From Promethearchaeota archaeon (GTDB lineage: Archaea; Asgardarchaeota; Lokiarchaeia; Sigyniarchaeales; SOKP01), in contig JAHLWP010000008.1 of assembly GCA_019057865.1 (NCBI GenBank), positions 68,424-132,423 of the forward strand: a DNA stretch of 64,000 nucleotides, given 5' to 3'. Positions 10,288 to 22,061 of this stretch are shown here, piece by piece (position 1 is the stretch's first letter; every line of letters begins with the position of its first letter). Made by a program: the position numbers and the translations under genes. Below the pieces are notes generated by a model, which worked only from the letters and a program-made list of their open reading frames with translations, had not been told where the DNA came from and did no database searches.

Positions 10288-11442
10288 ATGGAAATAACTA
10301 GAAGTGAGGACTGTCTGATATTTAATGGTCTTACACCTGAAATTACTAGGATGAATAGAGTCTATGATGCATTCGCAGAATTTATGAGCAATAAACAGGC
10401 TAATGATCCATCCGATAGATTTAATTTTATTGTATTTCAAGAAGATGGTCCAAATTATTTAAATAATTTCACATTATATCCTGAATATATTATAGATACG
10501 TTGAAATCGTTAAATGCTACAATAACTAGGGCTAATGTAGCGGGAGGAATTTTTGTGGCTGTAACATTCATAATTGATGTATTTAAAAAAATTTCTGATA
10601 AATTTTTTCGTTTAATTATTCTTGTGGATGAAGGTTCTCGAAAAATTCCGCCTCAATTTATTCCTGTTTTGGAAGACCTAATTTATAAAGTTAAAGATAT
10701 GCCTTTTTTCATAGACGTTATACGTATTAATGACTATAATCTTCAAGAAGGAGAAAAACTGAATAAATTGGCTAAAATATGTAATGGTAAATTATATGAA
10801 ATACATAGAATTCGAGATCTTTTTCCGTTATTAGAAAAACTTTCAGAAAAGAAATATATTAAAATACCTGAATTTTATTTTAAACCAAGTGCCCCCCACA
10901 TTCCAAACGAAAACCAGCCGTTTTATATTAATCTGGCTGATGCTCCAATAGAGGTAGAAAAAACGTCAACATGTGCTATTTGCTTTCAAAAAGATAATTA
11001 TAATATTGTACAATGTCCATCATGTGAAACTTTAGCACATAAGACATGTTGGGCTCAGTGGGCTAAAACTACTAATATTGGAATTCCACATGTTTTTAGG
11101 TGCCATAATTGTTTTAATATATTAAAACTTGATAGTGATTTTGTTCATGATGTTCAAGCAGGGAGGTTACCTACTGCAGAACAATTAAGAGAAGTAAAAG
11201 TGCGGAATATTGTTGAATATTTACAGGATTTAGAGGCAAAACAAAAACCAGAAATAATTCATGTTCCTGACCCAATGGCAATAGAAGGGGTAGCTACTGA
11301 ATATATTGAAGAAGGTCCTCTGGAGGATAATATTTATGAGAGAAAAAAATCTGAAATAAATGTAATAATTTGCCCTAACTGTAGTAAAATTGCTACAAGT
11401 ATGAAAAAAAATTGCCCTTACTGTGGGTTTGAATTGTTTTAA
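10288..11442 (+). CDS. vWA-like domain + C4HC3 (PHD/RINGv-like) zinc finger + C-terminal zinc ribbon
   Basis: DRFNFIVF and RLIILVDEG vWA-like strands; CAIC..CPSC..H..C..CHNC; CPNC..CPYC. Confidence 0.6.
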   Translation: MEITRSEDCLIFNGLTPEITRMNRVYDAFAEFMSNKQANDPSDRFNFIVFQEDGPNYLNNFTLYPEYIIDTLKSLNATITRANVAGGIFVAVTFIIDVFKKISDKFFRLIILVDEGSRKIPPQFIPVLEDLIYKVKDMPFFIDVIRINDYNLQEGEKLNKLAKICNGKLYEIHRIRDLFPLLEKLSEKKYIKIPEFYFKPSAPHIPNENQPFYINLADAPIEVEKTSTCAICFQKDNYNIVQCPSCETLAHKTCWAQWAKTTNIGIPHVFRCHNCFNILKLDSDFVHDVQAGRLPTAEQLREVKVRNIVEYLQDLEAKQKPEIIHVPDPMAIEGVATEYIEEGPLEDNIYERKKSEINVIICPNCSKIATSMKKNCPYCGFELF

Positions 11443-12315: not shown

Positions 12316-13674
12316 TTACTTTAAATTTATACGACCAATTGCTCTAAATGGTAATTCACCATGGAATTTGTCGTAATCAAAAATTCTCCTTCCATCTATG
12401 AGATTTGGAGTTTTCATTTTATTCTTAAAATCACTGGGATTTAAGGTTTTGAACTCATCCCACTCAGTGACTAAGAAAGTACATTCAGAATCTTTTAATG
12501 CATCTTCTATATTTTCAGCATATTGAATTCTATCTCCAAATACTTCTCTAGCTGTTACATTCGCTTTAGGGTCATAACCTATAATATCAGTAACATTTCG
12601 TTTTAATAATTCATTAACAATCCTAATACTTGCTGCTCCTCTCATATCATCTGTGCCTGGTTTAAATGAAAGACCTAATAATGTAACTCTTCTTCCTGCT
12701 AATTTACCAGCTAATTCTTCAGCAATATCAACAATTTTAACTGCCTGATCATCATTTATAGCCAGAACTGCTTCTAATAATCTAGAATGATATCCTTTAG
12801 CTTTTGCCCACGCTTTAATAGCATTTACATCCTTATGAAAGCAAGCACCACCGAAGCCAACTCCAGCACCTAAGAATCTTGGATTAAGTCTATAATCTAA
12901 CCCTACGCCTTTCATAACTTGGACAACGTCAACATTGGGAACTAATTGAGCAAAATTAGCAAATTCATTAGCATAACTAATTTTAGTAGATAAAAGACAA
13001 TTGTTTCCGTATTTTACTAGTTCTGCACTCTCAAGATTCATTCGTAAAATCGTACAATTTTTTAGATGATCCCCATAGAAGTACTTATAAAATTCTTGAA
13101 GCATTGCTCCACTCTTTTCATCAAATTCTCCAATAATGATTCTATCTGGGTGTAAAGTATCTTCAATAGAACGACCTTCAGCTAAAAATTCTGGTTGCAT
13201 ACATAATCCAAAATCTTTCCCTGGTTCTTTCCCTGATGTTTCTGTAATAATTTTACCCACTAAATTTCTTGTTGTTCCAGGAACAACTGTAGATCTGACA
13301 ACAACCAAATGGTATTTATCTATTTTCTTTAAACTTTCACCTATTTCTCTTGCTGTATTCTCAATGAAACTTAGATCAATACTTTTATCTTGTTTCATTG
13401 GAGTCCCTTGGGTAATCATAGAAATATCTGTTTCTATTATTGCTCTTATAGGATCTGTAAGACATTGTAAAAGGTGGGGTTTTTTTTTCTTAATTTCATC
13501 CATCATTTCTTGTAAACCTGCTTCAAAAAAAGGAGCTCTACCTCCGTTAATCATAGCAGCTTTTTTTTCATTATGAGTAGAAGCCAATACTTTAATATCT
13601 TTATTAGCAAAGCAAGCAGCAGAGCATAATCCAATAAATCCAGTCCCTAGGATTGAAACACTATATTTATACAT
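12316..13674 (-). CDS. ugd: UDP-glucose/GDP-mannose dehydrogenase family protein
   Basis: GTGFIG, STVVPGTT, PEFLAEG, GFGGACFHKD, FKPGTDD.R, IDGRR. Confidence 0.88.
   Translation of the reverse strand: MYKYSVSILGTGFIGLCSAACFANKDIKVLASTHNEKKAAMINGGRAPFFEAGLQEMMDEIKKKKPHLLQCLTDPIRAIIETDISMITQGTPMKQDKSIDLSFIENTAREIGESLKKIDKYHLVVVRSTVVPGTTRNLVGKIITETSGKEPGKDFGLCMQPEFLAEGRSIEDTLHPDRIIIGEFDEKSGAMLQEFYKYFYGDHLKNCTILRMNLESAELVKYGNNCLLSTKISYANEFANFAQLVPNVDVVQVMKGVGLDYRLNPRFLGAGVGFGGACFHKDVNAIKAWAKAKGYHSRLLEAVLAINDDQAVKIVDIAEELAGKLAGRRVTLLGLSFKPGTDDMRGAASIRIVNELLKRNVTDIIGYDPKANVTAREVFGDRIQYAENIEDALKDSECTFLVTEWDEFKTLNPSDFKNKMKTPNLIDGRRIFDYDKFHGELPFRAIGRINLK
12321..12405. repeat. 85-bp direct repeat, copy 2 (current 3' end of ugd)
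   Basis: Matches 11498..11582 at an offset of 823 bp. Confidence 0.92.
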
Positions 13675-13839: not shown

Positions 13840-15126
13840 ATGAAAGAATTGAGAAAAAAACTAAAAATCACAAAAAAAGCGTTAGATACAGTAAATAAAT
13901 TTCTTGTTGATGAGGATAACATTTTAATTAATAATTTAATTGATATAATCGAAAAGTATGGTGGCGTTGATGACATCAATAAGAAAGCTAAAGAAGCAAG
14001 TGAATTAGATAATCTACTAAGTAAACTAAAAAATAAGAAGCCTGATTATGCGCAGGATATAGAATGGTTAATTGAACAAAGAGATAATAACGCTTTTATT
14101 AGCATACCTGAATATAGAAAGAAAATCCTTGGAGAAAAATTTTCAGAAATGAGCTTTAATAAGGATTATGCTGTTACATTAGAACTTTCAGCTTGCCAAT
14201 ATTTTCCATTTTTTATGGATATAACAAGAGCAGCTATTGAAGATCAGAATTTAATGCCAGGTAGAATAATTCGTGTAAGAAAAATGAAAGAACAAGAAGA
14301 AGATGGTGATCTATTAGCAATGGCGGCTGCCATGCAAATTATTGGCGCAACTTATGTAGAAACATTAGATACCAAGGGAACTGCTCCTGGTCCTGATGGA
14401 TTACCAGTAAATGTACATCTTGGTGGACCCGAAACCATAACAGGTTATTTTGGAGGAGTGGGGCAACCTAATGATTTTGCATTAAAGTGGGTTGATGAAT
14501 ATCTTTATTATTATACTAATTATGGTATCAAGCAAGTTCTAAATATTAATCCTGGAACGGTTTTACTAGGATATTATATTCATAAATTAGGGATTAATAA
14601 CGAATTTAAAATATCAGTATATATGGGAAATGATAATCCATACGCTTGCCTGTGGACTCTTTTAACAGCTAAATTATTCGCCAGAGAAGATGGAACAAGC
14701 CCGTTGATTGGTTTTAATCTTGCTAACTCAGTAAATAATGAAACAATTGAACTCACTGCTCATATTAGAAAAGCATTTGATTTTGAAGATGTTATCAGAT
14801 TTGAACATCATGTGATTGAAACACAGAAAAGTATTGTACGCCAACCATATGATCGAAGAGAAGATTTATTGGAAGTTGCTATGAAAGTGAAAAATATCAG
14901 TGCTAAACATGAAGGTGGTGATGTAGAAATAGATAAGAATAGAGAACATCCTTCAGATATTTTAGATTATTTTAGGGATAAGCAAGAGATTATTGATTCA
15001 GGTCATTGGGAATTTATGCGTAGAAATCACCTTGATAGATATATTGCTATTAATACTACAGCAAAAGTATTAACTGAAAACGGTATTGATATTATTGCTG
15101 CCCAAAATCTTCATCAAGTTGATTAA
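13840..15126 (+). CDS. Hypothetical soluble protein, apparently co-transcribed with dapA-fae
   Basis: 428-aa ORF with AGGAG RBS and enzyme-like segments (ETLDTKG, HLGGPETITGYFGGVGQPN, KHEGGD); 22 bp from the next gene. Confidence 0.75.
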   Translation: MKELRKKLKITKKALDTVNKFLVDEDNILINNLIDIIEKYGGVDDINKKAKEASELDNLLSKLKNKKPDYAQDIEWLIEQRDNNAFISIPEYRKKILGEKFSEMSFNKDYAVTLELSACQYFPFFMDITRAAIEDQNLMPGRIIRVRKMKEQEEDGDLLAMAAAMQIIGATYVETLDTKGTAPGPDGLPVNVHLGGPETITGYFGGVGQPNDFALKWVDEYLYYYTNYGIKQVLNINPGTVLLGYYIHKLGINNEFKISVYMGNDNPYACLWTLLTAKLFAREDGTSPLIGFNLANSVNNETIELTAHIRKAFDFEDVIRFEHHVIETQKSIVRQPYDRREDLLEVAMKVKNISAKHEGGDVEIDKNREHPSDILDYFRDKQEIIDSGHWEFMRRNHLDRYIAINTTAKVLTENGIDIIAAQNLHQVD

Positions 15127-15148
15127 ATAATAGAGGTTTAAAGAAAAG

Positions 15149-16636
15149 ATGAGTAAGTTTGATTTTAGACCCACTGGAGTCATGGTAGCACTTGTAACGC
15201 CATTTAATAAAGATGAATCGATAAATGAAGACCAATTAAGGAATTTAGTTAATCATCTGATTGAACAAGGGGTTACAGGATTAGTCCCTGTCGGTACTAC
15301 TGGAGAGTTTGTAAATATGACTTTTGAGGAACGTATAAAAGTAATTGAAATTGTAGTGGATGAAACAAATGGTAGAGTTCCGGTAATAGCAGGAACAGGA
15401 GAGACAGGAACCAAATTAGTGATTGATGCTACAAAAGCCGCAACTGATATAGGTGCAGATGCAGTTTTAATAGTCACACCTTATTATTTAAAACCGAAAG
15501 CAAAGGGATTATATGATCATTACTACACTATTACTGAAAAAACAGATATACCTATAGTACTCTATAATATCCCTGCTTGTACGGGTGTAGAATTACCTTG
15601 GACTGTTGTAGAAGATCTCGTAGATATCGAAAATATTGTTGCTATTAAAGATTCTAGTGGTGATTATAAATATTTTTCAGCATTATTGGAAAAAGTAAGT
15701 GATAAGATTTCAGTACTTATTGGATGGGATGAAAATGTTTTAGGAGCTTTAGCTGGAGGTGCTGCTGGCTGTATCTTAGGTTCTGCAAATGTTTTCCCTA
15801 AAATTTGGCTCGAAATTTATAATCATGTAAAAAATAATCGTCTAGAAGAAGCTCAAACACTTCAAAAGAAGGTCCAAAAAATAGCAAGACTTTTAATAAA
15901 CTCAGGAGCATTAGGAGTTAAATCTTGCTTGAATATGATGAAAGTACCGGTTGGAAAAACTAGGCAACCAATTGTTTTAGGAGATGCTCTTTCTTATGAA
16001 ATAAAAGATGAATTAAGAGTTGAGCTTGAGAAATTAGGATTGATTGAAAAAACAGAAGTCCAATTTGAATTTGGAGAAAAACCACTAATAAGTCGTTTCT
16101 ATGCTGTTGGAATTACACCTAAGAAAATCACAGATTTTAAGTTAAAAGTAGGGGAATCATTAGTAGGAAATCGTGTTGAGCTTGCACATATTGATCTTCT
16201 AATTGGTGAAAAAGGTGGACCTGTTGGTAATGCTTATGCTCAAGCTTTAACTAATCCAGAAGAAGGACGTGAAGGTCTTCAAGTTATACTTGAGCCTAAT
16301 ATGCAAGTAAAACCACCAACAATTATGATCCCTACAGTTCGTCCAACTTCCCTTCGTCATGCTAGTCTAACTTATGGACCTGCACAAGCTGCAATAGCCA
16401 AAGCTGTAATGCAATGTGTTATAGATGGAATTCTCCCGAAAGAATTAACAGATGATATTCTAATAATCGTGAATGTTTTTGTCCATCCAAGTGCTAGTGC
16501 AAGAAAGAGAATCTTTATCAACAACTATAAAGCAACTCGTAATGCAATTCGAAAAGCAATGGAAGGCTTACCAACGGTTGATGATGGGATAGAAAATGCT
16601 GAAAATGCACGCCATCCTTTTCGTAACGATCCTTAA
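15149..16636 (+). CDS. DapA/DHDPS-family class I aldolase fused to C-terminal formaldehyde-activating enzyme (Fae)
   Basis: N-terminal GTTGE, YNIP, IKDSSGD; from about 16140 GESLVG, AHIDLLIG, GPAQAAIAKAV, VFVHP, NYKAT..AI.KA, HPF. Confidence 0.88.
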   Translation: MSKFDFRPTGVMVALVTPFNKDESINEDQLRNLVNHLIEQGVTGLVPVGTTGEFVNMTFEERIKVIEIVVDETNGRVPVIAGTGETGTKLVIDATKAATDIGADAVLIVTPYYLKPKAKGLYDHYYTITEKTDIPIVLYNIPACTGVELPWTVVEDLVDIENIVAIKDSSGDYKYFSALLEKVSDKISVLIGWDENVLGALAGGAAGCILGSANVFPKIWLEIYNHVKNNRLEEAQTLQKKVQKIARLLINSGALGVKSCLNMMKVPVGKTRQPIVLGDALSYEIKDELRVELEKLGLIEKTEVQFEFGEKPLISRFYAVGITPKKITDFKLKVGESLVGNRVELAHIDLLIGEKGGPVGNAYAQALTNPEEGREGLQVILEPNMQVKPPTIMIPTVRPTSLRHASLTYGPAQAAIAKAVMQCVIDGILPKELTDDILIIVNVFVHPSASARKRIFINNYKATRNAIRKAMEGLPTVDDGIENAENARHPFRNDP

Positions 16637-16829
16637 CTTTTCCTAAAATTATTTTTTCAATTTTTTATATTTTATTAATTAAATCTTTCAAGATTTTAAA
16701 TTTATAAACTAATTTTGTAGTTATTTAATACATTATAACCCGAATATTGATAATCTCAAATAAATATTAGAAACTAATAATAATATCAAATCCAAAATTG
16801 TAAAGATAAAATGAGATGAATTATAAAAA

Positions 16830-17315
16830 ATGTCAGAACAGATATTTCATTTAAAAGTGGGTGTAGAAGCTCCTGGATTTTGTCTTCCAGATAAAGATAA
16901 TAAGGAGGTATGTTTGAAGGATTTTAAGGGTAAATATGTAGTTCTTTATTTTTATCCAAAAGATAATACACCAGGATGTACAACTGAGGCTATAGGTTTT
17001 ACAGGGATTTTACCAGAATTACAAAAATTGGACGGTATCGTCATTGGAATTAGTCCAGATTCTCCTGAATCACATGCGAAATTTATTAAAAAGAAGAATT
17101 TAAAAGTAATCCTTTTGAGTGATGTTGATAAGAAGGTATTAAAGGCATACGGAAAATGGGGTAAGAAGAAATTTTTGGGTAAAGAATACATAGGTGTTAC
17201 TCGAAGTACTTTTCTACTAGATCCTAATGGAAATATAGCACACATTTGGCCGAAAGTCTCTGTAAAAGGACATCCAGAAGATGTTGAAAAAGTAATAAAA
17301 GAACTAATAAACTAA
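16830..17315 (+). CDS. bcp: Thioredoxin-dependent peroxiredoxin Bcp
   Basis: YFYPKDNTPGCTTEA and RSTFLLD. Confidence 0.9.
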   Translation: MSEQIFHLKVGVEAPGFCLPDKDNKEVCLKDFKGKYVVLYFYPKDNTPGCTTEAIGFTGILPELQKLDGIVIGISPDSPESHAKFIKKKNLKVILLSDVDKKVLKAYGKWGKKKFLGKEYIGVTRSTFLLDPNGNIAHIWPKVSVKGHPEDVEKVIKELIN

Positions 17316-17379
17316 ACTTCTTTTTTATATTATTTTTTATATGAAATTATAATTATAAAATCAAAATTACCTTTAAATT

Positions 17380-17964
17380 ATGAATGTTATAGATGCTATA
17401 AAAGAAAGGAGAGCCTATCGTTCTCTTGAATTTGTTGAAATCTCAGACGAATTAATTAATGACTTGGCTAATAAAGCACAAATTGCTCCTTCATGTATGA
17501 ACAAGCAACCTTGGAATTTTATTTTTATAAGAGAAAAAGAACAACTGGAAAGATTATTTACAGCTCTCTCTATTGGAAATAAATGGGTTGAAGATGCTTC
17601 AATGATAATTGCTATATTCAGTAAACCTGAGAATGATTGTATAATTGGTGAACGTCTCTATTATCTATTTGATATTGGAATCGCTGCTGCTTTCATTATA
17701 TTGCGAGCCACGGAACTAGGATTAGTAGCCCATCCAATAGCCGGTTTTAAAGAAGAAATAGCAAAAAAAATTTTAGAAATTCCTAATGAAATGATATTGA
17801 TTACGCTTATAATCATCGGAAAACATTCAAAAACTATTAACCCAATTCTTTCAGAACCAATGAAATTAGGAGAAAAGCAAAGACCTCCAAGAAAGCAATT
17901 AGGAGAGTTTATATTCCTTGAACGTTATAATAATAAATTTATTGAGAAAAGAGGTAAACAATAA
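17380..17964 (+). CDS. Nitroreductase family protein
   Basis: RRAYR, APS..NKQPW and ATELGL motifs. Confidence 0.88.
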   Translation: MNVIDAIKERRAYRSLEFVEISDELINDLANKAQIAPSCMNKQPWNFIFIREKEQLERLFTALSIGNKWVEDASMIIAIFSKPENDCIIGERLYYLFDIGIAAAFIILRATELGLVAHPIAGFKEEIAKKILEIPNEMILITLIIIGKHSKTINPILSEPMKLGEKQRPPRKQLGEFIFLERYNNKFIEKRGKQ

Positions 17965-20079
17965 ATGAATGATGAAATAATAAAAAGTTATAAGAATCAT
18001 TTATCAAATGAAAGAAGCCCTTATCTCCTTGAACATGCAAATGATCCCATAAATTGGTATCCCTGGGGAGAAGAAGCCTTTAAAAAAGCTAAAGAAGAGA
18101 ATAAACCAATATTTCTATCAATAGGTTATTCTAGCTGTCACTGGTGTCATATTTTTCAGAAAGAGTCTTTTTCAGATTCAGAAGTCGCATCTTCAATGAA
18201 TGAAGTATTTGTTTCAATAAAAGTGGACAGAGAGGAACGTCCAGATATAGACAAAATTTATATGACAGTATGCCAAATGATGACAGGAAGTGGAGGATGG
18301 CCTTTAACTATAATAATGACTCCTAACAAGAAACCATTTTTTGCAGGTACATACTTTCCGAAAGAAAGCCGCTTTGGGCGTATAGGGCTTATTGATTTAA
18401 TAAAAAGAGTAGAAAATCTCTGGAATAATAATAAGGATGAAATATTAAACTCTGCTGATCAAATTACAATATCTCTCCAGAATATTGATCAAGAAGCTCC
18501 AGGAGATAAAATCAGTGAAAAACTTTTAAATAAGACGTATAATCAGCTAAAAAATCAATTTGATGAAAAAAATGGAGGTTTTAGTGAACATCCAAAATTT
18601 CCTACTCCTCACAATATATTATTCTTGCTTCGGTACTGGAAGCGAACAGGAGAGAAGGAAACTTTAGAAATGGTAGAAAAAACACTCCAAGCAATGAGAA
18701 GAGGTGGAATTTATGATCATATTGGTTTTGGAATCCATCGTTATTCAACAGATTCAACTTGGCTTGTTCCTCATTTTGAAAAAATGCTTTATGATCAAGC
18801 ATTAGTTGCCATGGCGTATATAGAGGCATATCAAGCTACAAAAAATCCGGAATATAGGAAAATTACTCAAGAAATTTTTGAATATGTTTTACGTGATATG
18901 ACTTCACATGAGGGAGGATTCTATTCGGCAGAAGATGCTGATAGCGAGGGAGAAGAAGGAAAGTTTTATGTATGGTCAAAAGATGATCTGGAAATTATTC
19001 TTGATAAGGAAGAATTTGATTTAGCTATGAAAGTTTTTAATGTTAAAGATTCTGGAAATTATTTAGAAGAATCAACAGGAAAAAGAACTGGACAAAATAT
19101 ATTACATATTAACGATTCTTTTACAAAAATCTCAAGCAATCTTAGCATTTCGGAAAAAGAGTTAGTATCAAAAATTGAAAACATTAGTAGAAAGCTGTTT
19201 GAAGTACGTGAGAAGAGAATACATCCTCATAAAGATGATAAAATCTTAGTAGATTGGAATGGGTTAATGAATGCAGCATTAACTAAAGGAGCACAAGTCT
19301 TTAATGAAAATAAATATTTGAAAGCAGCTAAAAAAGCTACTGAATTTATATTATCATCATTACGTTTACCTAATGGTAGACTACTGCATCGATATAGGGA
19401 AAGTGTAGGTGAAATTAATGCATACTTAACAGATTATGCTTTCTTAATTTGGGGTTTAATTGAATTATACGAAGCTACTTTTGATATTTATTTTCTCAAA
19501 ACTGCGCTTGAATTGCATGAAATTCAATTAAAGCGTTTTTGGGATAATAATATTGGTGGATTTTTTTTCACGGCGGATGATAGTGAGGAGTTATTAACTA
19601 GACAAAAAGAAATCTATGACGGTGCTATTCCATCTGGAAATTCTGTAGCAATGTTAAATTTATTACGTTTAAGTTATTTCACAGGTAATCACGAATTAGA
19701 AGAAAAAGCAGATATAATAGGTAGAGTATTTACAGAAAAATTAAGTAATATACCTGTAGCTTATACAAATTTCATGATAGCGGCAGATTTTGCAATAGGA
19801 CCGACATATTCTTTGGTAATTGCTGGAAATACAGACAGTGATGATACTAATGAGATGGTAACAACAATAAGAAATGAGTATATTCCTAATAAAGTTCTAA
19901 TGCAAAGAAAAACAGAACAAAATCCACCAGATATAGACAAATTCTCTAACTTTGTTGAATATTTTGATAATCTTGAAGGGAAAGCTACGGCATATGTCTG
20001 TATTAATAAAACATGTAAACCTCCTACCCATGATCTGAATCAAATGATTGAATTTCTTAAATCAGATTGGAGCAATTAA
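17965..20079 (+). CDS. Thioredoxin-domain YyaL/SPATA20-family protein
   Basis: [41 protein letters not shown]. Confidence 0.9.
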
Positions 20080-20744: not shown

Positions 20745-22061
20745 TTATACATCGAGAATATCTTTAATGTCTGGATTAATTTTTGCTGGATCAAAATAGG
20801 ATGTTTTACCCGTTTCTATAAATATTTTTATTTCTTCAGCATATCGGTCTTCAAAATCATTAACAAAATATATTAACCTTTCTTTTAGGCTTTTTTTAGC
20901 AGGTTCAGAAAGAATTAATGCTATCTTTATCCAATTACCATATGCAGCATGAATAGAAAACCCTTTATAACTAATTGCATCCATAGCATCTGACCCTCCT
21001 ATTTCAGATACAAATGAATCCATAGCACTTAAAAACCCAGAAACCAAATCTTGTTCTATTTTTAAATCATCACGAGAGTAAGTTAGTAAAGGTAAACCAG
21101 AAGATTTATCAATAATTAATAAAGTTCTAAAAATATCTCGATATCGAGGTTTCCTAGCTAAAGATTGTTCTTTTTCCAAGGCTTCTTCTTTGGGTAGAAT
21201 TTCATACATAATAAATTTTTTTGGGTTATATGAATCTGATTCACTAAATTCATAATCTGATATTTTTGCTAATCTTGATTGGGTCCTTATTGGTTCACGG
21301 GGTAGTTTCTGAATATATTTATCTCTGAGTGTAATATTATGATTTTTAGATTTCTTTCCTTTCGTGATACCTAACACTCTCTGATGCATAGGATCCACAA
21401 CATAAAACCAAACATTTAATTTTTTCATATCAGATATTAGTCTTTCTAATCCTATATTATAGACTCCTCTTGGAGTAGTTACAAAAACCGTCCATGAAGC
21501 AATTTTTGAAACTTCATTTAACAAGCAGAATGTATTTTTATATTCCTCCTCATTCATTTGTGGACCTGTTCGTACGAAAACGGCTTCAGTTCTTAATAAA
21601 GGCTTTTTTTTAATCAGATATAAATCTACATTATACTTAATTTCATTAATATTAGAGGTATCATAAACCGAGATTCCCATATCTGCGCAATAATCGGCAA
21701 AAACATCTATTAATTCATGTTTTGCTATGAAATCAAATCGAGATAAATATTTTTTTATTTTATCGTCTTTAAATAGCATATCTGCAATGAAATCTAAGCA
21801 AGTGGGATAAATTTGCTGAAGTTCCTTAATATTTTTATATTTATTATAAAAATGAATACCTATATAATCAAGATAATCTAATTTCGTGAGATCCTTTCCT
21901 TTTGGGATGGTTATTCTATTTATTTCCACAAAATCCTCTAATTCTTTAAATCTAGTTCTTACTATTAAACAGTTAAGACAAATAATGCCAAATTTACCTT
22001 CGATTTCTTGACGAATGATTTCTTGTATCTCTTCTGGACTTTGTGAATTTTCTGCATTCAT
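20745..22061 (-). CDS. Protein with C-terminal longin-like domain
   Basis: LLIIDKSSGLPL..DLVSGFLSAMDSF..FEDRY pattern typical of Asgard longin domains. Confidence 0.65.
   Translation of the reverse strand: MNAENSQSPEEIQEIIRQEIEGKFGIICLNCLIVRTRFKELEDFVEINRITIPKGKDLTKLDYLDYIGIHFYNKYKNIKELQQIYPTCLDFIADMLFKDDKIKKYLSRFDFIAKHELIDVFADYCADMGISVYDTSNINEIKYNVDLYLIKKKPLLRTEAVFVRTGPQMNEEEYKNTFCLLNEVSKIASWTVFVTTPRGVYNIGLERLISDMKKLNVWFYVVDPMHQRVLGITKGKKSKNHNITLRDKYIQKLPREPIRTQSRLAKISDYEFSESDSYNPKKFIMYEILPKEEALEKEQSLARKPRYRDIFRTLLIIDKSSGLPLLTYSRDDLKIEQDLVSGFLSAMDSFVSEIGGSDAMDAISYKGFSIHAAYGNWIKIALILSEPAKKSLKERLIYFVNDFEDRYAEEIKIFIETGKTSYFDPAKINPDIKDILDV

Follow-up and report, generated by a model that had tools for sequence, protein, structure and literature searches.

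The window analysed here, a stretch of 64,000 nucleotides from a Promethearchaeota genome, carries on its + strand a gene (15149..16636) in which a DapA/NAL-family class I pyruvate aldolase barrel is joined in frame to a complete formaldehyde-activating enzyme (Fae) domain. On balance, although with modest confidence, we think that its product runs catabolically, converting 4-hydroxy-2-oxobutanoate (HOB) and H4MPT to pyruvate and methylene-H4MPT; it would then correspond to a 2-oxo-acid hydroxymethyltransferase that depends on H4MPT, assembled from two stock parts. Both domains are known and Fae-Hps sets a precedent for the design. The activity is probably undescribed: a literature search, in which few subscription papers were covered, returned no paper describing the fusion or an Asgard HOB route.

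The fusion frame encodes 495 amino acids without an internal stop. The barrel, residues 8-293 (15170..16027, +), matches PF00701 with 264.9 bits, and the Fae domain, residues 334-491 (16148..16621, +), matches PF08714 with 187.1 bits and TIGR03126 with 184.4 (cut-off 118). The features of the DHDPS/NAL class I aldolase superfamily, namely the TIM barrel, GxxGE, the relay Tyr residues and the Schiff-base Lys, are all present. The GTTGE motif (residues 49-53, 15293..15307, +), invariant among 121 sequences, is predicted to bind the 2-oxo-acid carboxylate via T50 and T51. It is followed by YNIPAC (15563..15580, +), with the catalytic Tyr139 in YNIP (139-142) and Cys144 at the position of DHDPS Arg138, and by the Schiff-base Lys167 of IKDSS with Ser169 at K+2 (15647..15655, +). 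GWDE (15722..15733, +) replaces the GDD of DHDPS; by motif comparison it sets bulky Trp/His beside the aldehyde site, a trait typical of the fusion family. The Fae part matches Methylorubrum Fae (1y5y) along its whole length (E 3e-33), and in this alignment AHIDL (16184..16198, +) provides His347, which corresponds to the AHIDL His of Fae, GPAQ lies at 16376..16387 (+), and RHPF of the C-terminal arm, as in beta-type halves, at 16610..16621 (+). T-rich tracts past the stop codon (16637..16680, +) form a candidate archaeal terminator. An AlphaFold2 model of the protein (pLDDT 88) shows two ordered domains, and its barrel superimposes on DHDPS structures with TM 0.96 and rmsd 1.4. The complete pyruvate aldolase barrel and full Fae in one frame, with every motif that the first-pass annotation had named, are thus confirmed. 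Two features had escaped that annotation: the Cys at the Arg138 position, and the 428-aa gene upstream as a part of the system.

That annotation had also allowed for an assembly artefact. PF00701 and PF08714 occur together in 120/120 of the database homologues among the matches listed, and a full-length, stop-free fusion frame is present in 70 of 151 genomes of the class (Promethearchaeota/Lokiarchaeia), with a partial one in 11 more. In either domain, most substitutions relative to related sequences are at the third position of the codon (for example 15/4/111 and 13/4/63), and both halves are, to judge from the alignments, under purifying selection. Because the listed homologues carry both domains and the frame is full-length in so many genomes, the fusion is real; together with the third-position bias, these results ruled out an artefact.

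Databases label the fusion homologues as DapA-type, and the fusion itself owes the name to its DHDPS-like fold and to a TIGR00674 dapA score above cut-off (251.6 versus 206.15, against 341 for the DapA of the same genome). This score, the database naming and the best PDB matches, which are DHDPS, all favour a true DHDPS that carries Fae incidentally, an alternative raised in the first-pass annotation which we now regard as hardly tenable. In E. coli DHDPS, Arg138 binds aspartate semialdehyde (PMC3188589); it is absent from 121/121 close fusion homologues, Cys144 being there instead, and is kept by the genome's own DapA, which shows YNVPSR. The separate pathway that the annotation had proposed looking for was found: this canonical dapA adjoins dapB elsewhere in the genome, and lysC (aspartate kinase) and asd are also present. 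In the phylogeny that it had also proposed, a barrel tree from a quick search, the fusions form a clade of their own that spans archaea and Chloroflexi and excludes the Arg138 enzymes, the genome's DapA among them (SH-aLRT 97). A DHDPS identity was therefore dropped on three grounds: the Cys at the Arg138 position, the separate clade and the canonical dapA-dapB elsewhere. The K+2 residue, Ala in E. coli DHDPS and Ser in HOG aldolase (PMC3188589), is Ser169 in the fusion and discriminates weakly, 12 of 37 Arg-bearing relatives having Ser too. The HOGA signature is itself incomplete, with a counterpart of Ser198 present and Asn78 (of GSNGE) absent. One Polaromonas dapA near a partner gene was left out as support, since it keeps Arg138 and lies outside the fusion clade.

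As for the other half, Fae (EC 4.2.1.147) condenses formaldehyde with H4MPT. The AHIDL His, the GPAQ Gln and the C-terminal HPF arm, which we take to be functional residues of Fae, are all found in one chain in the window's protein. Thr396 occupies, in 121/121 sequences, the position at which 1y5y and the genome's Fae-Hps have the Lys of a PKV/KV motif. Mch and Mtd of the H4MPT pathway score above cut-off in the host genome, as expected from the annotation's proposal that the fusion feeds the H4MPT branch, and a separate Fae-Hps-type gene lies on contig C48. The suggested survey of the DHDPS + Fae architecture found the listed homologues mostly in Promethearchaeota/Lokiarchaeia, and tandem-pair fusions in Thorarchaeia, Thermoproteota and Chloroflexi-type contigs; fusions at 35-50% identity exist. 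Where the protein is split into a pair, the beta gene alone keeps AHIDL and the RHPF arm and the alpha gene alone keeps EPN and GPAQ/GPxQ. All four motifs stand in one chain in the window's protein and in the other Asgard forms made by a single gene, so the window copy represents the undivided form, its Fae motif set complete. Degenerate Fae halves, or barrels without the Lys, occur in some of the split pairs. One tandem aldolase-Fae pair, at L121 8544-11449, has lost the Schiff-base Lys from both barrels and adjoins RibD_C, an IF-2B-family isomerase and a class II aldolase.

Members of the aldolase family other than DHDPS often cleave 2-keto-3-deoxy sugar acids. This habit, together with the degenerate Fae halves and Lys-less barrels of some split pairs, would suit a KDG/KDX-type aldolase releasing a larger aldehyde, with Fae scavenging formaldehyde independently or serving in assembly or regulation. 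We judge this very improbable, as the fusion falls far under the cut-offs for KDG aldolase, NanA, KdgD and HpaI (116/390, 171/382, 117/374 and 193/397, respectively), forms a single clade across archaea and Chloroflexi and resides in a genome that already has a Fae-Hps-type protein, and as the interchange with PanB described below points to a one-carbon unit.

Upstream of the fusion lies a partner gene of 428 amino acids (13840..15126, +), separated from it by a spacer of 22 bp (15127..15148, +) with AGAGGT at 15132-15137; the arrangement suggests that the two genes may be co-transcribed and translated together. The partner is directly beside the fusion in 27 of 30 loci, and the two occur together in 76 of 151 class genomes (5 have the fusion only, 8 the partner only and 62 neither). 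Its homologues number at least 8000 proteins. It belongs to no Pfam or NCBIfam family, searches of Pfam, NCBIfam, PDB sequences, phage and Atlas features gave nothing usable. In the analysis as a whole, a single-sequence metagenome scan gave no match. The predicted model of the partner (pLDDT 87.6) is a TIM barrel at residues about 107-423, for which fold searches returned generic TIM barrels only (class II FBP aldolase, E 4e-4 and TM 0.43; best Z 12.4), and no function was therefore transferred to it. Its nearest predicted structures are cysteine-poor, 312-aa 'U32-like' proteins (TM 0.74). The partner itself lacks the features of U32 Fe-S hydroxylases, with no PF01136 or other Pfam match, a single nearly invariant Cys and no cluster. 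Profile comparison links the 428-aa barrel weakly to the 312-aa one (hhalign probability 18%, E 0.0013), and the motifs of the two are in register; from fold and motif register we take them to be branches of a single family. A 'U32-like' protein of ~315 aa adjoins the fusion in five Asgard families without the 428-aa gene. At a single locus, on a Mycobacterium plasmid (L340 9986-12542), a truncated piece of the 312-aa relative immediately precedes dmpF-dmpG, which encode the aldolase system for 4-hydroxy-2-oxovalerate, the C5 homologue of HOB; an opposite-strand gene overlaps the start of this piece. Seen in its genomic setting, the partner barrel probably makes the substrate of the aldolase.

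Across taxa, three interchangeable modules adjoin the partner gene: the fusion, a PanB variant, or an aminotransferase with homoserine dehydrogenase (HSD, called above the PRK06270 cut-off) and AOR. Among 80 GTDB partner loci, 63 carry the fusion, 13 HSD and none both; all 13 HSD loci carry an aminotransferase, 12 an AOR, and three add another PLP enzyme, the copy scanned being PatB-type. The same pattern recurs by family. Fae-domain matches are present in 26/27 genomes of f12 (as a tandem pair), with HSD in 1/27; f17 and f18 have the fusion and HSD in 0/10, so that HSD occurs in 1/37 genomes of the three fusion families together. Conversely, partner and HSD are found in the identical 10 of 14 genomes of f10, side by side and with no Fae, and in 7/7 of f24, again with no Fae. 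Four Chloroflexi-like loci have tandem aldolase-Fae genes in the slot. Class genomes that are at least 90% complete divide into 39 with the fusion only, 29 with HSD only, 21 with both and 6 with neither, counts taken over related and hence not independent genomes, for which Fisher p-values overstate the significance; the exclusion is only partial within Lokiarchaeia, where HSD is also found in 21 of 60 fusion-bearing genomes. In f2 genomes without a Fae match, a highly divergent DapA-like protein lies just upstream of the partner (L233 7778-8821 and L234 7085-8128); this could possibly be a fourth exit, releasing free formaldehyde.

With aspartate kinase in 1/18 genomes that have the HSD module and homoserine kinase above cut-off in 2/18, HSD there stands off its normal biosynthetic route. 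It probably oxidises homoserine in these genomes, and HSD with AOR would fit an oxidation of homoserine to aspartate. PanB-like neighbours occur in 31/80 metagenome partner loci, mostly bacterial, and in at least three-quarters of those Bacillota contigs that were read. The partner-linked PanBs form a group with V214I (29/29), I212L (25/29) and G203S (27/29), and 49 Asgard PanBs retain I202/G203/V214. Residues 202 and 212 of E. coli KPHMT tune acceptor size (PMC7611260), and the bulkier pocket of the partner-linked enzymes would, from these residues, admit a smaller acceptor. In Asgard PanBs (L307-L335) the His216 position varies (Trp in 16/29) and the pocket residues are kept. Two Bacillota loci (L260 5739-11156 and L261 1-11212) have the partner and PanB variant beside an HpaB-fold (4-hydroxybutyryl-CoA dehydratase-like) gene, with thiolase, nitrilase-family and homocysteine S-methyltransferase genes as well.

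HOB is proposed as the substrate because one compound fits all three partner modules; an aminotransferase interconverts HOB and homoserine (PMC8879981). In the barrel, HOB would form a Schiff base with Lys167 and be cleaved to pyruvate and formaldehyde, the latter would be handed from barrel to Fae, and Fae would join it to H4MPT. Methylene-H4MPT would then feed the Mtd/Mch branch and pyruvate central metabolism. With PanB, the hydroxymethyl group of HOB would leave to THF instead. HOB most likely comes from the presumably co-transcribed 428-aa barrel, which might hydrate 2-oxo-3-butenoate or replace the 4-substituent on a methionine- or homocysteine-derived 2-oxo acid. Genes for PatB, a Cys/Met-type lyase, homocysteine S-methyltransferase, SAH hydrolase and Lrp regulators in various partner loci suggest a methionine or homocysteine origin. 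The main alternative source would be dehydration of a sugar acid (tetronate), as suggested by FGGY sugar kinases and UxaA-type or enolase-type dehydratases in other loci. HOB had been named in the first-pass annotation as an example; it has since gained gene context, i.e. the complementarity with aminotransferase-HSD-AOR and the interchange with PanB beside the partner, and its role as substrate and the direction of the reaction are what we infer from that context. The dmpF-dmpG locus, and the presence of Mch and Mtd without HSD in the host genome, also speak for HOB. Several observations speak against it: HSD accompanies the fusion in 21 of 60 class genomes, some partner loci hold the kinases and dehydratases just named, Thr396 stands where 1y5y and Fae-Hps have a Lys, one of the split pairs lacks the Schiff-base Lys in both barrels, the profile link between the two barrel types is weak, and the partner-linked PanBs score above the panB equivalog cut-off, so that a link to pantoate may exist.

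The last of these observations supports another reading, that formaldehyde is released from, or added to, a different 3-hydroxymethyl-2-oxo acid such as ketopantoate or a branched sugar-acid derivative. With ketopantoate, the fusion would be an H4MPT-dependent substitute for PanB and the partner barrel an enzyme of the pantoate pathway, and the split alpha and beta forms could do two sequential steps. PanB homologues above the equivalog cut-off do fill the same slot, 15/81 fusion genomes have no PanB, and the kinases and dehydratases just mentioned would suit a sugar acid. However, PanB coexists with the fusion in 66/81 genomes (25/27 in f12), which weakens a simple replacement, the 49 inspected Asgard copies have a canonical pocket whereas the partner-linked PanBs have an altered one, and ketopantoate leaves the HSD-AOR module unexplained. 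We consider this reading rather unlikely, if worth keeping in view.

Direction is a further question. Run anabolically, the enzyme would combine methylene-H4MPT and pyruvate to HOB, which would go on to homoserine or to a product of the partner barrel, and it would be the natural form of the homoserine-cycle step known from synthetic work, substituting for homoserine dehydrogenase. PanB-type transfer is reversible, which favours such a direction, as does the anticorrelation of fusion and HSD (HSD is absent in 39/60 fusion genomes and present in 29/35 without it). HSD was not found in the host genome, which is 99.7% complete, and one partner locus (L203) lies amid genes that read from their sequence as Wood-Ljungdahl-type. 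On the other side, the host genome has no homoserine kinase above cut-off and its thrC-like matches are below cut-off, 12 further genomes from families with the fusion show no homoserine kinase either, AOR is part of the alternative module, where aspartate kinase is mostly lacking, and Lrp-type regulators and transporters near partner loci suggest catabolism. An anabolic direction is thus unlikely in our estimate, and catabolic cleavage of HOB is the reading kept in what follows.

Several known systems resemble parts of the proposed one. Fae-Hps (PRK13307; H4MPT hydro-lyase / 3-hexulose-6-phosphate synthase) likewise joins Fae to a formaldehyde-handling aldolase with capture on H4MPT, but its domain order is reversed and the aldolase of the fusion is a Schiff-base pyruvate aldolase; the fusion misses the PRK13307 cut-off (146 versus 274), with only its Fae part matching. 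PanB (EC 2.1.2.11) shares the proposed net reaction, from methylene carrier and 2-oxo acid to hydroxymethyl 2-oxo acid, but works through a metal enolate, THF and ketoisovalerate, where the fusion would use a Schiff base, H4MPT and probably pyruvate. DapA has the same fold, GTTGE, both Tyr residues and the Lys at 31-40% identity, and differs in that the fusion has Cys for Arg138, GWD for GDD, Ser at K+2, the Fae domain and a clade of its own. DmpG-DmpF, an aldolase paired with an acylating acetaldehyde dehydrogenase, cleaves 4-hydroxy-2-oxovalerate to pyruvate and delivers a volatile aldehyde to the partner that loads it onto a cofactor, as proposed for the fusion; it consists of two genes and has a class II metal aldolase, a C2 aldehyde and CoA as acceptor. 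The 4-hydroxy-2-oxoglutarate aldolase HOGA (PMC3188589) is a catabolic aldolase of DapA fold with no Arg138 and with Ser at K+2; its motif reads GSNGE, in which Asn78 serves the distal carboxylate, in contrast to GTTGE in the fusion. In the synthetic homoserine cycle, promiscuous RhmA joins pyruvate and formaldehyde to HOB (PMC8879981), the same bond with the same aminotransferase link to homoserine, but that work calls HOB non-native and the step is a side reaction, whereas the fusion is proposed to be a natural enzyme dedicated to this step and coupled to a carrier.

Lokiarchaeia and Thorarchaeia are abundant in sediment and thought to ferment peptides. The fusion offers a concrete, assayable entry point into the Asgard H4MPT branch; if the proposal holds, it would tie amino-acid fermentation to the Wood-Ljungdahl methyl branch in these archaea. 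The synthetic homoserine cycle, now reliant on promiscuous enzymes, would profit directly from a dedicated pyruvate-formaldehyde aldolase or methylene-carrier:pyruvate transferase. The automatic DapA label of the fusion is corrected, and probably so are the PanB and biosynthetic HSD labels of the alternative partners; the unnamed partner family gains a first functional handle. More broadly, and tentatively, since we put it a little short of an even chance, a natural HOB pathway may be widespread in anaerobes, in which the new TIM-barrel family makes HOB from the methionine/homoserine skeleton and three exits dispose of it according to the one-carbon carrier of the host: aldolase-Fae with H4MPT, the PanB paralogue with THF, and aminotransferase-HSD-AOR with no carrier. 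Such a pathway would provide dedicated enzymes for a step so far met only in synthetic methylotrophy.

Some other genes also drew notice. A 694-aa protein (L003 187-2271, G000:C75) combines a degenerate DapA-family barrel with a phosphotransferase-like C-terminal domain. Divergent from the operon lies a UDP-glucose/GDP-mannose dehydrogenase (12316-13674, -), whose family is found in 43 partner loci and whose association is probably lineage synteny only. Downstream of the fusion, peroxiredoxin, nitroreductase and thioredoxin/glycosidase-like (DUF255) genes (16830-20079, +) recur in 34-41 loci. The 438-aa protein at 20745-22061 (+) has a C-terminus that by eye is longin/roadblock-like, preceded by an N-terminal part without an assignment. 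Finally, a 384-aa protein (10288-11442, +) has an N-terminal alpha/beta domain that looks vWA-like by eye, a RING/PHD-like finger and a C-terminal zinc ribbon; a Prok-RING_1 profile matches weakly at the Cys-His finger, and the protein is possibly a component of an Asgard ubiquitin system.
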